A stretch of DNA of 64,000 nt from Escherichia coli (GTDB lineage: Bacteria; Pseudomonadota; Gammaproteobacteria; Enterobacterales; Enterobacteriaceae): NCBI RefSeq assembly GCF_003334305.1, contig NZ_QOWS01000007.1; one strand, 5' to 3'. The translations under genes were made by a program, and so were the position numbers. A model generated the notes under the pieces. That model was not told where the DNA came from. It saw only the letters and a list, made by a program, of their open reading frames with translations, and did no database searches. Each line of letters starts with the position of its first letter. The first letter of the stretch is position 1. This document shows positions 11,762 through 17,774 of the stretch, piece by piece.

Positions 11762-13273
11762 TCAGTGCACAGACAGAATGGCGGACATCAGCTCATCCAC
11801 ATTGACCGGCGAGTGAAACTCCTGCGAGAACGTACCGTGCTGTAACAACAGGATGCGGTCGCACACCAGCGGCAACTCCTCCACTTCACTGGAGATAAAC
11901 ACCACGCTTTTTCCTTCGGCAGCCAGCTCACGGACAATACGGTAAATCTGCTGTTTGGCTTCGATATCGACGCCGCGCGTTGGCTCGTCGAGCAACAAAA
12001 TCTGGCTGGCGGCATAGACCCAACGACCGATCACCACTTTTTGCTGATTGCCGCCAGAAAGCGTGCCGATGGGCGTTTCGCTACTGGCGGCCTTGACCGT
12101 CATCCGCTGCATCACCTCTTCGGTCAGGCGGCGGATGGTGGACCATTGCAGTACGCCGTTGGCGCTGATTTTTTGCCGATTGGTCAGCACTGTATTTTCG
12201 TCAACGCCCAACCAGGGAATGATCCCCGCTTCTTTGCGGTTTTCTGGCGTATAGCCAATGCCGCGTTTCAGCATGTCGCCGTAATCGGGGCGCGTGATTT
12301 TCTCGCCGTTGATAACAATTTCGCCCTGTTCATACTCCTCCAGCCCAACAATCGCCTTCAGCAATTCACTGCGCCCTGCCCCCAGCAGGCCAGCAATGCC
12401 AAGCACTTCGCCGCGACGTAACGTAAAGCTGATATCCTCCAGCTTGGGCTTATGGCGTAATGCACGGACTTCCAGCACGGCCTGATCCACAATTTCCTGA
12501 GGGGCTACCGGCGCAATATCAACGTGATCACGCCCTAGCATTAGCGACACAATATGATGCGTGGAGGTGTTTTCGAGCATCACATCGCCCGCCACCTGAC
12601 CATCGCGCATAACGGTGGCACAGGAGGCAATGCGGCGGATTTCTTCCATCCGGTGGCTGACATAAATCACCGCCACGCCCAGTGCCGACATCTTTTTCAC
12701 CGCACTGATCACCAGTTCAACTTCTGCACTGGCAAGCGAGCTGGTGGGTTCATCAAGAATGACCACGCGCGGCTCGCCCTTCATCACCCGTGCAATTTCC
12801 ACCAGTTGCTTTTGCGCCGGGCTTAGCGTTGAAACAAGTTGTTCAGGACTAACGTCAACGCCCAGCGCCTGTAAGCAACGTTGGGCATCCTGCGCCATTT
12901 GCAGGTAATCAATCATGCCGTTGCGGCGAGGCCATTGACCAAGGCAGAGGTTTTCTGCCACCGTCAGCCCTTCCACCAGACTTAATTCCTGATAAACCGC
13001 ACGAACCCCCAGTTCAGCGGCACGGCGAGTCAACGTAGCTTCGTCACCTTCCAGTCGCGTCTCGCCAATCCAGATATCACCGCTATCCGGGCGTTCGCTG
13101 CCGGTAAGCATTCGAATGAGAGTCGATTTGCCCGCGCCGTTTTTACCTAACAGCGCACGAACTTCGCCTTTATTGAGCGTGAAGTTAACGTTATCCAGCG
13201 CAACGACGCCGGGGTAACGCTTATTTCCTGCCACCACTTTTGCTACCGGGACTGCCTCTGTTGCCGTGAACAT
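11762..13273 (-). CDS. yphE: ABC transporter ATP-binding protein, tandem ATPase domains (sugar type)
   Basis: 503 aa; two Walker A motifs (GKNGAGKST, GLLGAGRSE) and ABC signatures (LSPAQKQ, LSGGNQQK). Confidence 0.9.
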   Translation of the reverse strand: MFTATEAVPVAKVVAGNKRYPGVVALDNVNFTLNKGEVRALLGKNGAGKSTLIRMLTGSERPDSGDIWIGETRLEGDEATLTRRAAELGVRAVYQELSLVEGLTVAENLCLGQWPRRNGMIDYLQMAQDAQRCLQALGVDVSPEQLVSTLSPAQKQLVEIARVMKGEPRVVILDEPTSSLASAEVELVISAVKKMSALGVAVIYVSHRMEEIRRIASCATVMRDGQVAGDVMLENTSTHHIVSLMLGRDHVDIAPVAPQEIVDQAVLEVRALRHKPKLEDISFTLRRGEVLGIAGLLGAGRSELLKAIVGLEEYEQGEIVINGEKITRPDYGDMLKRGIGYTPENRKEAGIIPWLGVDENTVLTNRQKISANGVLQWSTIRRLTEEVMQRMTVKAASSETPIGTLSGGNQQKVVIGRWVYAASQILLLDEPTRGVDIEAKQQIYRIVRELAAEGKSVVFISSEVEELPLVCDRILLLQHGTFSQEFHSPVNVDELMSAILSVH

Positions 13274-13295
13274 AGGGACCTCTGCGAATCAGCGA

Positions 13296-14279
13296 TTAGG
13301 GCAGACCATCAACGTGCGTTGCCAGCCACTGTTTACCATCTTCCGTTTTGGTATAGAGATCGATTGGCACCTGAATCACTTTTTCACCGTCGGCTTGTTT
13401 ATTGATAACCTTCAATGTTTGCGCGAAAACAGCATTGCCCATTTTCTTACCGGAAATATCCACTACCGCTTTCAGCACCTGATTGTTTTCCAGCTCCTGA
13501 GCAATTTCGGTTGTCATATCCGAACCGAAAACAGCAATTTTTCCGGCCTGATTTTGATTACGTACCGCTTTTACCGCGCCGAGTGTCGCACCGCCCGACT
13601 CCCCCATAATGGCGTTGAGATCCGGCGTGGAGATAATCAGTTTTTCACCAACGGAAATCGCTTTATCTAAAACAGTCCCTTCCTGATTAGCGACAATTTG
13701 CGCGCCGGGAACGCGGGATTTTAATACTTCTTCAAATCCTTTACGTCGCTGCACACAAACTTCAAAGGCTTCGCAATTGATGACGGCAATTTTCGGCTGG
13801 TCAATTTTATTGGCAATAAAATAATCGGCGGCAGCGTTACCCAGTTTTTTACCAAATTCCAGTGGATCGCCGACCAGATACGCCGAGACATATTTATCGA
13901 CACCCTTTTGATTAATACAGGTGTTGTAGCAAATCACCGGAATACCCGCTTCACTGGCGCGACGAACGGTACGGCTACTGCCATTTTCAGACACTGCCGA
14001 TAAAATAATGGCATCGACATTACGCGCCACGAGGGTATCAACAAAGGTACTTTCTTTCGAAATATCACCCTGGGCGTTAGTTTCAATTAACTGTACCTGT
14101 ACTGAAGAATCTTTTGCCGCATCCTGAACGCCCTGACGCACTCCAGCGTAATATCCCTGGGTATCAAGGTATATTGCACCAATGGTCATCTCTTTATCCG
14201 CAGCCCTGGCAAATAGTGCGCTACCTAATAGCGTACCCATTAATAATAGATTACGGGTTGTTCTCATTTTTTTAGGCAT
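13296..14279 (-). CDS. yphF: Periplasmic substrate-binding protein of the ABC transporter
   Basis: 327 aa; N-terminal signal peptide MPKKMRTTRNLLLMGTLLGSALFARA; AGGAGG ribosome-binding site upstream. Confidence 0.85.
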   Translation of the reverse strand: MPKKMRTTRNLLLMGTLLGSALFARAADKEMTIGAIYLDTQGYYAGVRQGVQDAAKDSSVQVQLIETNAQGDISKESTFVDTLVARNVDAIILSAVSENGSSRTVRRASEAGIPVICYNTCINQKGVDKYVSAYLVGDPLEFGKKLGNAAADYFIANKIDQPKIAVINCEAFEVCVQRRKGFEEVLKSRVPGAQIVANQEGTVLDKAISVGEKLIISTPDLNAIMGESGGATLGAVKAVRNQNQAGKIAVFGSDMTTEIAQELENNQVLKAVVDISGKKMGNAVFAQTLKVINKQADGEKVIQVPIDLYTKTEDGKQWLATHVDGLP

Positions 14280-14333
14280 AGTGCCTCCTGTAGGGTTTTT
14301 ATTAACAACGGCTTATTCTAATTATTTTGTGAT

Positions 14334-14354
14334 GAGCGGCAGCGCGTGCCGCTC
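14334..14354 (-). other. GC-rich intercistronic stem-loop between yphG and yphF (8-bp stem, 5-nt loop, no U-tract)
   Basis: gagcggca-gcgcg-tgccgctc perfect inverted repeat in the 96-nt yphG-yphF spacer. Confidence 0.5.
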
Positions 14355-14375
14355 AAATATTACAGTTAATAGGGT

Positions 14376-17300
14376 TTAGTGAACGTAGTTAAAAATAAAA
14401 GGCATCACGGTGGTGAATAATGCCGCTTTCGGCCAGGCCGGATTAATCGCCGTCAATTCAGCGCGAGCAGATTCATATTGCGCAACCTCCCCGAGTCCCG
14501 CGGACGCCAGCATCGCCACCATCAGGCATTTTTCTTTATGCTGCTGTTGTAAATCGCCATACAGCGACAACAGGTCAGGTTGTGAAACAGCAAAGAAATC
14601 CGCCTCAATACTGGTTTTCGCCATCTCTTGCGCCCACTGTTTCATTTCACTAAACAGTTGCTGTGCGGTTTGCTGTTCACCCAGCAGTCGCAGCGCCATT
14701 CCTTGCCAGAAGAGATAATCAACCGGCTGATCGTTGTAATAACTGTGGATGTTAATGGTGCGATCGCCGGTCGCCGCCAGACGTAAACAACGCATCGCTT
14801 CAGTTTCATCGCCCTGCGCGTTGGCGCATATCGCCTGCCAGAACCAGATGTCGTTATCAGTTTGCCCCGGTAAACGGCCTTCGCTTAAATTCTCCGGATA
14901 ATGCAGCGCGGCATGAAGCAGTTCGCTGGCCTGCTGCGGCTCTCTGGCATCAAGATGCTGCCAGGCGCGTAATAACTGGTTGAGGATAAACTGACTGGTG
15001 ACCTTCCCTTCCCCGCCTTCCCACGGGTGGAATTTGCGCGTGGCGAGAATGTCCGCCGCTTTGTCTGCCTGACCCGTGAGATGCCACAAATTGAGCAACT
15101 CTGCTGTCATGTCGTCGCGTTTCAGCGCAATTTCCAGATTATTTTCCAGACGCGCCAGTCGTTTCTCCGGTGTGGCTCCGCTTAACTTATCAAGCAAATC
15201 CCGTTCGAAAAGCAGACGTGCATCCTGCGGCGCAAGCTGATAAGCATTATCAAGATAACGCGCGGCCAGCTCATAATCGTGTTGCTTATTCCACGCATGG
15301 ATCGCTAACCCGCGCCAGCCGTCGGCAAACTCCGGCGACATCTCTACGCAACGTTGCCATAAGGTAATGGCTTTGTTGTAGCTACGCTTGTTGTAGTAGA
15401 AGCAGGCCAGTAAATGACGGGCAAACCAGCACTCTTCAATACTCTCCAGCGCCGCCACTTCTTCCAGCGTATTCGGGAAACGGACAAACTGCGGGAAGAC
15501 ATCAATGGCTTTTGCGACCAGTTCGCCGCGTTCGGCTTTCGGCAATAAACTCGCCTGCAGGTAAAGCGGCAGCGTGCGCTGGCAGTCCAGTGCGTTCAGC
15601 ATCTCTGCCGCCAGGGTGGGCATTCCCCAGTTAATCAGTTGCCCGGCGGTCATCAGAGCGTTAACGTCGCGTCCCTGACACAGACCGCGCCACTGCGCGA
15701 GAGCTGATTCGCTACGACCATCGAACCAGTTCAGCCACCACAGAGTGGCGTTCAGCGGATAATCGCGCAGCAGTTTCTCGCGCTGCACACGCGCGTTGTC
15801 CTGACGACCACTTAACACCAGCAGCAGATTATGCAGGCAAAGCACTTCCTGATTGGTTGGGCAGGCGCGAAGACTTTGTTGGCAAAAATCCAGACCAGCG
15901 TCGAAGTTACCATTACGCGCCGCCAGTCGTGCCAGGCCATAATAGCCACCGGCTTTGCTGTTGCCGCTCCAGACCGCACGCCAGAAATCCTCTTCGGCTT
16001 GTTGATATTGTCCCTGACGTTCGTAAGCACTGGCGCGAATCAAACTGGCCTGTCCGCACTGCGGATTTTTGTTCAGCGCATGTGCGCGTTTCAGCGCCTG
16101 AGTGGCATACGCCACCGCTTGCGGGAAATCGGCGCGGTTATATTCCAGCATCGCCAGCGCCAGGTTACAGCGGTAATCCAGCGGATCCAGCACCACGCCG
16201 CGCAGGTAGTAATCGAACGGTGAACGGCTGGCGTGATGATATTGCTCCAGATGCTGACCGATAAACCAGGCTTCATCTGTACTGGTAATGTCTTGTGCTG
16301 CCAGTGGCGCTTTGGCGACGTCCGGCAACGGCAACTCTTGCGGCTGATGTTCCTGATAACTCAGTACAATATTGCCGTCGGCATCGGAGAGCTCAATGGT
16401 CAGCCTTTCAGGATTGATACCGTGCAACACGCCCTGGATGGCGGTCGCAGGCATCAGTGCCACGGCATCATCAAGTAACGCGTTGCATTTGCCGATTTCG
16501 CGGATCGCCAGGCGGTATCCGTTCAACGGAGAGATGGCATACAGCCCCCACTCAATCCCCCGCTTACTACGCTGGAGTTTTATCACCGCATCGCGGGAGG
16601 CATTTTGCACCATGCCCAAAGAATGATAAGGCAGGAAATACTGCTCAAAACGCATCTCTTCGTAAGCATCAAGCCAGGTAAAATCGGGCTGGTTATCGGC
16701 AAAAATACCGGTCATCAGTTCGATATACGGGCCGTTATTGTCGGTCAGACTCTTATCCCACGCCTGGCCAAATTCACTGTGTCCCCAACTCCACTGTTTT
16801 TTACCTGGCGCGATATGGTGGTTGGCAACGTGCAGCAAACCGCCATCTTCATCGTGACACCACGCGCCGACAAAATCGTACTGCGATTTTTCGGCCATAT
16901 ATGAGGTTGGAACAGGCACATTTTTATAGCGAGAAATGTCCACTCCGGCGGAGTAGTCCACTTTGTAGTAAGTGCCGGTGGCGATGGGGAAAGCGGAGAC
17001 GGCCCGTTTGCCGTGATCAAACACCGCAGTCACATCCGGTGGGAAAACGCTCTGATGCCCTTCCCCCCCTTTCACTGCCGGGTTGGCCCACCACAAGAAA
17101 TGACGCGGCGTGGCGTTACCGTTATAGACGCGGCTGGCGATTTCCAGCGCCGCCCGTTCAGGACGCAGTGTGAAACCTGTCATCACCTGTAAACCGTGCA
17201 TCGGCTCCGTTTCGCCGACCCACACCGTCTGTGCGCCGTCTTCATGGGCTTCGAGGGTGAAATCAACGGGCATAAAGGTGGTCGGGCGATGGTGTTGCGG

Positions 17301-17657
17301 CCAGTTAAACTCAATCCCGCCAGAGATCCACGGTCCCAGCAGCCCCACCAGCGCAGGTTTAATGACTTCATTGTGATAGACAAAATCGCGTTGTTTCACT
17401 TTATCCCATGCGCGATGCACACGACCGCCCAGTTCCGGCAGGATCATCACTTTGATGTAGTCGTTTTCCAGCCACACCGCCTGCCAGGATTTCAGGGTTT
17501 TCTGCTCGCTCAGCGTATCGGTCACGCCGTAGGGATAAACCGCGCCGGACGATCCCTGATAAACGCGATTTTCCAAGAACATGGGATGTATATCCTGCGG
17601 CCCGGTTTCATAGGTCGGGATCTCAACGCGCTCTTGCCACACTTTTACTGGAGTCAT
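14376..17657 (-). CDS. yphG: Large (~1,093 aa) protein of unknown function with TPR-like helical repeats in the C-terminal half
   Basis: Continuous 1,124-codon ORF; start assigned to MTPVKVWQER (ATG at 17657); heads the yph operon. Confidence 0.75.
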   Translation of the reverse strand: MTPVKVWQERVEIPTYETGPQDIHPMFLENRVYQGSSGAVYPYGVTDTLSEQKTLKSWQAVWLENDYIKVMILPELGGRVHRAWDKVKQRDFVYHNEVIKPALVGLLGPWISGGIEFNWPQHHRPTTFMPVDFTLEAHEDGAQTVWVGETEPMHGLQVMTGFTLRPERAALEIASRVYNGNATPRHFLWWANPAVKGGEGHQSVFPPDVTAVFDHGKRAVSAFPIATGTYYKVDYSAGVDISRYKNVPVPTSYMAEKSQYDFVGAWCHDEDGGLLHVANHHIAPGKKQWSWGHSEFGQAWDKSLTDNNGPYIELMTGIFADNQPDFTWLDAYEEMRFEQYFLPYHSLGMVQNASRDAVIKLQRSKRGIEWGLYAISPLNGYRLAIREIGKCNALLDDAVALMPATAIQGVLHGINPERLTIELSDADGNIVLSYQEHQPQELPLPDVAKAPLAAQDITSTDEAWFIGQHLEQYHHASRSPFDYYLRGVVLDPLDYRCNLALAMLEYNRADFPQAVAYATQALKRAHALNKNPQCGQASLIRASAYERQGQYQQAEEDFWRAVWSGNSKAGGYYGLARLAARNGNFDAGLDFCQQSLRACPTNQEVLCLHNLLLVLSGRQDNARVQREKLLRDYPLNATLWWLNWFDGRSESALAQWRGLCQGRDVNALMTAGQLINWGMPTLAAEMLNALDCQRTLPLYLQASLLPKAERGELVAKAIDVFPQFVRFPNTLEEVAALESIEECWFARHLLACFYYNKRSYNKAITLWQRCVEMSPEFADGWRGLAIHAWNKQHDYELAARYLDNAYQLAPQDARLLFERDLLDKLSGATPEKRLARLENNLEIALKRDDMTAELLNLWHLTGQADKAADILATRKFHPWEGGEGKVTSQFILNQLLRAWQHLDAREPQQASELLHAALHYPENLSEGRLPGQTDNDIWFWQAICANAQGDETEAMRCLRLAATGDRTINIHSYYNDQPVDYLFWQGMALRLLGEQQTAQQLFSEMKQWAQEMAKTSIEADFFAVSQPDLLSLYGDLQQQHKEKCLMVAMLASAGLGEVAQYESARAELTAINPAWPKAALFTTVMPFIFNYVH

Positions 17658-17774
17658 GGTGCCCTCAATATTAACAAGACATACTGAATTAAAAGATTTG
17701 TGGCAGTGTATTGAACAATCTGGCAATGTTTTCGCGGAATAATCACGCAATTAACTAAACAAGGTTTAGTGAAG

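Follow-up and report, generated by a model that had tools for sequence, protein, structure and literature searches.

A conserved stem-loop in the yphG-yphF spacer of Escherichia coli: a possible exonuclease barrier or weak terminator between two transcription units

Background

In the yph locus of Escherichia coli a perfect GC-rich inverted repeat stands in the short spacer between yphG and yphF. Does this element act in RNA, at the end of the yphG message, does it act in DNA, or is it a relic, and how does it fit into a locus that looks like a simple six-gene operon? Its genes specify a dehydrogenase and a mutarotase, along with an orphan ABC sugar transporter and a large DUF5107/TPR protein. 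The stretch of DNA analyzed here, 64 kb in length and referred to below as the window, comes from E. coli: a 301-nt query around the hairpin matches 5,421 of 5,426 complete genomes, in which the flanking genes are annotated as yphG and yphF and the hairpin site carries no annotation. On the minus strand the gene order is yphG (annotated extent 14376-17657; DUF5107/TPR protein), yphF (13296-14279; periplasmic sugar-binding protein), and then yphE, yphD, yphC and yphB. The ROK-family regulator gene yphH diverges from yphG, and its product is NagC/Mlc-like. In PMC4288165 YphH figures only as a third ROK repressor of E. coli, still uncharacterised. In orthologous loci taken from one genome per species, the yphG-yphF arrangement is retained throughout Enterobacterales.

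A search of the literature on yphF, yphG and yphH found no regulatory data, and the operon is probably silent in standard media. Should the reading favored below hold, yph would consist of two regulated units meeting at a compact junction, rather than of a simple six-gene operon, and 70 nt would hold an operator over the stop codon of yphG, the conserved hairpin and a -10 element.

Results and Discussion

A stable GC-rich hairpin without a U-tract

The plus strand at 14334-14354 reads gagcggca-gcgcg-tgccgctc, which is exactly the perfect 8-bp stem and 5-nt loop described in an earlier note on this DNA. In the mRNA sense the element is GAGCGGCA-CGCGC-UGCCGCUC, and an outer U-A pair (U-GAGCGGCA-CGCGC-UGCCGCUC-A) extends it to a perfect 9-bp stem with seven G-C pairs and a 5-nt loop. 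The extended hairpin occupies 14333-14355 on the minus strand and is made up of the 5' arm UGAGCGGCA (14355-14347), the loop CGCGC (14346-14342) and the 3' arm UGCCGCUCA (14341-14333). The spacer that holds it is 96 nt long in the window and runs from the yphG stop codon TAA (14376-14378, minus strand) to the yphF ATG start codon (14277-14279, minus strand), the latter preceded by a Shine-Dalgarno sequence, AGGAGG (14284-14289, minus strand). The hairpin begins 20 nt past the stop codon and ends 43 nt before the Shine-Dalgarno sequence and 53 nt before the ATG, and so lies between the yphG stop and the yphF ribosome-binding site, as first noticed.

The in silico folding that the same note had called for yielded a stable structure. 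The 21-mer folds at -13.6 kcal/mol (z = -3.3; none of 200 shuffles as stable), the hairpin is the minimum-energy structure in 49 nt of context, at -16.0 kcal/mol, and it dominates the fold of the whole 96-nt spacer. Markov-shuffled sequence is expected to yield 1.9 +/- 1.5 hairpins with a perfect 8-bp stem and 6 or more G/C in every 64 kb, which amounts to about 0.003 in a spacer of 96 nt. There are six such sites in the window itself, so that this one could have been picked post hoc; the conservation of its arms, described below, removes that concern.

The sequence 3' of the stem is UCACAAAAUAAU, which lacks a U-tract. A terminator scan did not call the hairpin, and directly after the stem UCACAAAAU falls short of five U in 8 nt. 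A GC-rich stem past the end of a gene is present, and with an intrinsic terminator the element shares a GC-rich stem of 8-9 bp, a short loop, a location just past a stop codon and, in a few relatives, a run of four or five U. It differs in having no U-tract in Escherichia or most other genera and no scan call. On these grounds we rejected a canonical intrinsic terminator in E. coli, in line with the original description.

Other identities were considered as well. A REP/BIME or other dispersed repeat is ruled out, the hairpin occurring once in each of 5,412 E. coli genomes and never on plasmids, in a genome-wide search that is blind to short copies with a different loop elsewhere. No second copy occurs in the 64-kb window at up to two mismatches, and no other exact copy of both arms in the fetched loci of about 9 kb. 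Rfam 15 gave no match in the window at the gathering threshold (osmY RNA reached 14.5 bits against a threshold of 46.9), and a search of seven orthologous loci with Rfam returned nothing. Pairing of the 3' arm, as an anti-Shine-Dalgarno sequence, with the yphF ribosome-binding site was dropped on inspection by eye, since only 4 bp can form. A long-range CUGUA/UACAG helix enclosing the hairpin, which appears in predicted folds, was dropped for want of covariation where CUGUA becomes CUGAA, and a 15-codon antisense open reading frame from 14331 was set aside because its start is not conserved.

Conservation of the hairpin arms

We extracted the spacers of orthologous loci, one genome per species, and compared the hairpin arms across 12 lineages. 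The core GAGCGGC...GCCGCTC is found in Escherichia (coli, albertii and whittamii), RIT691, Pluralibacter, Phytobacter, UBA3516, Citrobacter, Raoultella and Entomohabitans, and also in two Enterobacter-like lineages. Over the 12 lineages, mean pairwise identity is 0.976 for the 7-nt core of the 5' arm and 0.933 for that of the 3' arm, as against 0.44 for the 13-nt spacer after the stem. It is 0.41 at the four-fold degenerate sites of yphG and likewise 0.41 at those of yphF, silent sites being saturated between these genera. The arms are the most conserved segment of the spacer, and their identity exceeds even that of the operator-like palindrome O2 (0.78) and the -10-like hexamer (0.75) described below.

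About 5,400 of 5,426 E. coli genomes carry the hairpin. Among the alleles that we read, the only substitutions are two C-to-U changes in the loop, and the stem is intact barring one isolate, E. coli 2018-05-5CC (L071 121-151), in which an IS1A element sits within the 3' arm, after GCCGC. In a second isolate with an insertion at this locus, E. coli UTME-10 (L004 3080-3840), an IS1B element lies at the 3' end of yphG, yphB, yphC and yphD are inverted, and yphF is missing. Judged from these comparisons of sequence, the hairpin is clearly real and under purifying selection, and it likely has a function. It is a common kind of element, and its interest is local rather than general.

The hairpin is absent from four lineages (L012, L016, L028 and L029), whose spacers measure only 26-33 nt and lack the right arm of O2, the hairpin and the hexamer. 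These lineages keep the operon, which indicates that the junction module is dispensable. The junctions of the four deletions differ; in Lelliottia the junction is marked by a GAG microhomology shared by the 5' arm and the Shine-Dalgarno sequence. The L028 record bears the title Chryseobacterium sp. 18061, probably through mislabelling or contamination: it holds an enterobacterial yphH-yphG-yphF locus whose YphF is 85% identical to that of E. coli.

Dispensability raises the possibility that the hairpin is a relic without present function in E. coli, for example an old terminator, its palindrome being kept by a low input of mutations or by template-switch 'correction'. The degraded hairpin of Raoultella ornithinolytica, whose A.G mismatch is a fixed feature of several contigs from metagenomes, would fit such a history, as would the interruption by IS1 in one E. 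coli isolate and a clustered 5-nt polymorphism next to the stem that resembles a templated, palindrome-extending mutation. Drift does not explain arms that are 0.93-0.98 identical where neutral sequence is 0.41-0.44 identical, however, and template switching would keep complementarity, not a particular sequence. We therefore regard a relic as very unlikely.

Paired operator-like palindromes and a candidate internal promoter

The spacer also contains features that recur upstream of yphG. In the yphH/yphG divergent region, a near-perfect 23-bp palindrome abuts the yphH start (O1; 17751-17773, minus strand; TTCACTAAAC-CTT-GTTTAGTTAA). O1 has one mismatch to the ideal palindrome, a quality of match that was not reached in any of 100 shuffles of the window, and it is conserved in every lineage. 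An imperfect 23-bp palindrome, O2 (14361-14383, minus strand; TTCACTAAAC-CCT-ATTAACTGTA), lies over the end of yphG: its left arm covers the last codons, the stop codon falls inside it, and from its end to the hairpin 5' arm there are 6 nt if counted to the 7-nt core, or 5 nt if counted to the extra U-A pair. The two share the core ACTAAAC-N3-GTTTAGT, and both are conserved across Enterobacterales. Scored with a weight matrix built from O1 sites alone, O2 reaches 25 bits in the window, and it is the best or second-best match per locus of about 9 kb in 16 of 22 lineages, with 18-30 bits against at most 12 for the next. The exceptions are the four lineages with spacers of 26-33 nt, RIT691 and Enterobacter BIGb0383.

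Each palindrome is followed at the same distance by a -10-like hexamer. TACACT (17705-17710, minus strand) stands exactly 40 nt after O1 as the candidate -10 of the yphG promoter, and all 17 lineages examined have TA(A/C/G)ACT or, in two of them, CAGACT at this offset. TAGAAT (14315-14320, minus strand), 40 nt after O2, is the candidate -10 of an internal yphF promoter; it lies 13 nt past the 7-nt core of the 3' arm and 12 nt past the full 9-bp stem. A TAnnnT hexamer at 39-40 nt after O2 was found in 15 of 15 O2-keeping lineages, out to Budvicia, Ewingella and Rahnella, in the forms TAGAAT, TAAAAT, TACACT, TACCCT, TACTTT and TATTTT. The offset is 39 nt in three lineages, each with a hairpin loop one base shorter. 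From the operator to the hexamer the sequence has otherwise diverged neutrally. An nGTGA-like motif (nGTGA/TTTGA) stands at positions 4-8 after both O1 and O2.

This layout makes it fairly probable that yphFEDCB has an internal promoter in the spacer, of the same design as the promoter of yphG. Such a promoter would probably respond to the same regulators. The coordinates suggest that the hairpin would then lie at about -46 to -26. A simple sigma-70 scan found no promoter in the spacer or at the O1 region, so that the putative promoters would need an activator.

O1 and O2 may be the operators to which the ROK regulator YphH binds. NagC is known for having two operators at each locus that it regulates, and the literature consulted yielded no operator for YphH. 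Like the operators of NagC and Mlc (PMC4288165), O1 and O2 are 23-bp palindromes, and they adjoin the gene of a NagC/Mlc-like ROK regulator; they differ in sequence, having ACTAAAC-N3-GTTTAGT where NagC/Mlc operators have TT/AA at +/-5,6. Their position is also unusual for simple repression, since they are centred near -64 of the putative promoters. This paired operator/-10 architecture, which predicts both an internal promoter and YphH operators, is the more useful by-product of the analysis: the candidate operators O1 and O2, the candidate internal promoter and a stem to mutate are handles on the signal sensed by YphH and on the substrate of the transporter.

The earlier note had further proposed that the hairpin could set the ratio of binding protein to YphG. 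This part is only partly borne out, in that a 3' hairpin would protect the upstream yphG message and would not raise yphF. With O2 and the hexamer found at the matching offset, the YphG:YphF ratio is more probably set by the internal promoter.

Stem variation and the choice between RNA and DNA

An inverted repeat located at about -46 to -26 could also be a DNA element. In that case GAGCGGC and GCCGCTC would be the half-sites of a palindromic protein-binding site, or the activator or -35 part of the yphF promoter, and the RNA hairpin would be a by-product. We consider this the main rival to the RNA reading set out below, but doubtful.

Five of the core pairs are invariant across lineages. Changes on both sides of a pair occur in none of the seven core pairs and are confined to outer pairs; the outer stem pair may be U-A, C-G or U.G. 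A shuffle control for covariation was not significant, 69 of 500 shuffles reaching the observed score with the core invariant. We also scanned metagenomes with O2 and the hexamer as anchors, so that stem variants were sampled without conditioning on the stem; the nine contigs recovered, mostly Raoultella-like or Citrobacter-like, held no new compensatory changes. Arms that keep their primary sequence without compensatory change, and whose identity exceeds that of O2 and the hexamer, are what two sequence-specific half-sites would give. The invariant arms are about as compatible with sequence-specific recognition as with selection on RNA structure, and computation does not separate the two readings.

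The remaining variation points rather to pairing. Three of four independent one-sided arm changes produce G.U pairs on the sense strand (A-U to G.U in E. albertii, G-C to G.U in Citrobacter and C-G to U.G in R. ornithinolytica), a bias that speaks against a DNA site. The 7-nt core arms are separated by 6 nt in three or four lineages at the least and by 7 nt in the others, the sequence between them being variable, and most dimeric regulators would not tolerate such a change in half-site spacing. Outside Escherichia the loop is nevertheless fairly conserved (CTGACC), which a DNA site would accommodate.

The surroundings of the hairpin likewise speak for both sides. The distance from the 3' arm to the hexamer is 13 nt in 10 of 11 hexamer-retaining lineages (14 nt in Entomohabitans; BIGb0383 has no hexamer) despite an identity of only 0.44 in the intervening sequence, the hairpin lies in the same register as the conserved block TTGCGTGATTATTGTGCGAAAAC that follows O1 in the yphG promoter, and the nGTGA/TTTGA motif follows both operators; all three would suit an element of the promoter. 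Against this, the palindrome persists where O2 and the hexamer have decayed, in RIT691 and Enterobacter BIGb0383, the sigma-70 scan finds no promoter in the spacer, and the palindrome does not recur in the window or, exactly, in the fetched loci. Nor does a known motif match: as judged by inspection, the palindrome fits no LacI-type, NagC/Mlc-type, CRP, FNR or sigma-54 consensus. A sigma-54 -24/-12 element in the loop was dropped by eye, the spacing from GG to GC being 2 nt too short, and so was a CRP or FNR site, of which there is a single acceptable half-site.

The two levels could also be combined, the RNA form ending or protecting the yphG message and the DNA form serving as the upstream site, at -46 to -26, of an internal yphFEDCB promoter under the control of YphH and an activator, with the arms specifically recognised. 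We hold such dual use of the junction to be unlikely. If it were true, one 21-bp palindrome would couple read-through from the yphG promoter with initiation at the yphF promoter, and YphH, the only ROK regulator of E. coli still uncharacterised, would gain its first assigned operators in O1 and O2.

A proposed role at the 3' end of yphG transcripts

Our preferred reading, to which we assign a probability of roughly 45%, is that the inverted repeat functions in RNA, as a stem-loop at the 3' end of yphG transcripts, where it would be an exonuclease barrier or a weak terminator at the point where two transcription units meet. We infer that transcripts from the yphG promoter would carry the stem-loop in their 3' untranslated end, just past the reach of the terminating ribosome, and that it would define and protect this end by blocking 3'-to-5' exonucleases. 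Such an end could arise by endonucleolytic cleavage in the AU-rich stretch 3' of the hairpin, the exonucleases then being blocked, or by inefficient termination at or downstream of the hairpin, the 3' end then being protected. The hairpin would thus mark the boundary between the yphG unit and an internally promoted yphFEDCB unit, whose transcripts would not carry it.

Several observations are consistent with this reading. A hairpin 20 nt past a stop codon is where a 3'-end hairpin is expected, and the variable gap, the changes that yield G.U pairs and the variable outer pair are signs of pairing rather than of a fixed geometry. A stem-loop is moreover general to this position and, as seen above, independent of O2 and the hexamer: all spacers of at least 90 nt have a predicted stem-loop soon after the yphG stop, which in Enterobacteriaceae is always this hairpin. 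The hairpins of Rahnella, Ewingella and bin27 are not homologous to it and show a compensatory G-C to A-U exchange between Rahnella and Ewingella, and the spacer of Budvicia folds only into a long imperfect composite stem. No stem-loop was predicted in the four spacers of 26-33 nt. Weighing against a role in RNA are the lack of covariation in the core, the lack of a U-tract in E. coli, the dispensability of the element and the mismatch in R. ornithinolytica. The downstream sequence, too, is AU-rich and not C-rich, and shows no evident Rho-utilisation site just past the hairpin.

The transcriptome maps consulted are silent on the junction. Adams et al. 2021 assign no 3' ends to yphG or yphF in their Term-seq tables, which is uninformative if the operon is silent under the conditions used; the only entry at the locus is the glyA terminator, antisense to yphH. 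The Cappable-seq, SMRT-Cappable-seq and promoter reporter-assay data consulted contain nothing for yphG or yphF, the operon probably being silent there.

REP elements between malE and malF act as intercistronic stabiliser hairpins. The element described here resembles them in lying within an operon for a binding-protein-dependent ABC transporter, where it could skew the levels of the flanking messages; it differs in being single-copy and of different sequence, and the protected gene would be yphG and not the binding-protein gene, so that its effect would be opposite to that in the mal case. Another parallel comes from stable stem-loops without a U-tract that mark and protect Rho-dependent 3' ends in E. 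coli (Dar and Sorek 2018, PMC6061677). Like them, the yphG-yphF hairpin is a stable, GC-rich stem-loop soon after a stop codon and has no U-tract, and the role proposed is that of a barrier to PNPase and RNase II. Unlike the case described there, yphF starts only 53 nt on and is presumably translated, and no C-rich, rut-like region is seen.

The same structure could have a different meaning if yphGFEDCB were transcribed as a single polycistronic mRNA with no internal promoter. The hairpin, which lies between the two cistrons, would then be a partial attenuator or processing signal that sets the amount of yphF relative to yphG RNA. Lineages with spacers of 26-33 nt must co-transcribe yphF with yphG, so that read-through would be the ancestral default, and the absence of a sigma-70 consensus promoter from the spacer points in the same direction. 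Partial U-tracts also exist among relatives: the sequence is GCCGC-UUUUCCU in Citrobacter, and AGUUUUCG (...CUCAGUUUUCG) follows the stem in RIT691, and these, with four or five U, are the only relatives that approach a U-tract. In some relatives, as the Citrobacter tail illustrates, the hairpin may be a weak terminator. In Escherichia and most genera, however, the U-tract is absent and intrinsic termination should be very weak; O2 and TAnnnT at 39-40 nt, which persist as far as Yersiniaceae and Budviciaceae, are difficult to account for if there is no internal promoter; and a 3' hairpin stabilises the upstream, not the downstream segment. A single attenuated transcript consequently seems improbable to us. 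The earlier suggestion of a stabiliser or partial attenuator is still our best single guess, qualified by the presence of O2 and a -10-like hexamer in the same spacer.

Other features near the junction

In relatives with spacers of 130-190 nt, a second strong hairpin, absent in E. coli, lies between the hexamer and the Shine-Dalgarno sequence. It was found in the Citrobacter/Raoultella group (L017 3886-3919, L018 3847-3880, L019, L024 and L070) and at other positions in L015, L013, L020 and L022. In Citrobacter and Raoultella this second hairpin, unlike the core of the first, covaries, one pair being G-C, A-U, G.U or U-A. It would fall in the 5' untranslated region of an internally initiated yphF transcript.

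A hairpin that resembles a terminator, complete with U-tract (GGCAUUAUUCACCACCGUGAUGCC UUUUAUUUUU), lies at 14391-14424 on the minus strand, inside the final 16 codons of yphG. The U-tract is specific to Escherichia, and the structure is probably due to chance, 2.2 such sites being expected in the shuffled 1.8-kb region (13200-15000).

Just 3' of the yphG-yphF hairpin, on the minus strand, a polymorphic block (14322-14332) reads ATCACAAAAT in the window allele and ACGCTCAAAT in a variant with five adjacent differences. The variant occurs in an estimated 29% of E. coli genomes, a figure derived from truncated alignments and not from a direct count. It is complementary to AUUUGAGCG and would form an alternative 10-bp hairpin of -16.1 kcal/mol, compared with -15.9 kcal/mol for the original. 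By its sequence, the five-base block looks like a templated multi-base mutation of the quasi-palindrome or template-switch type.
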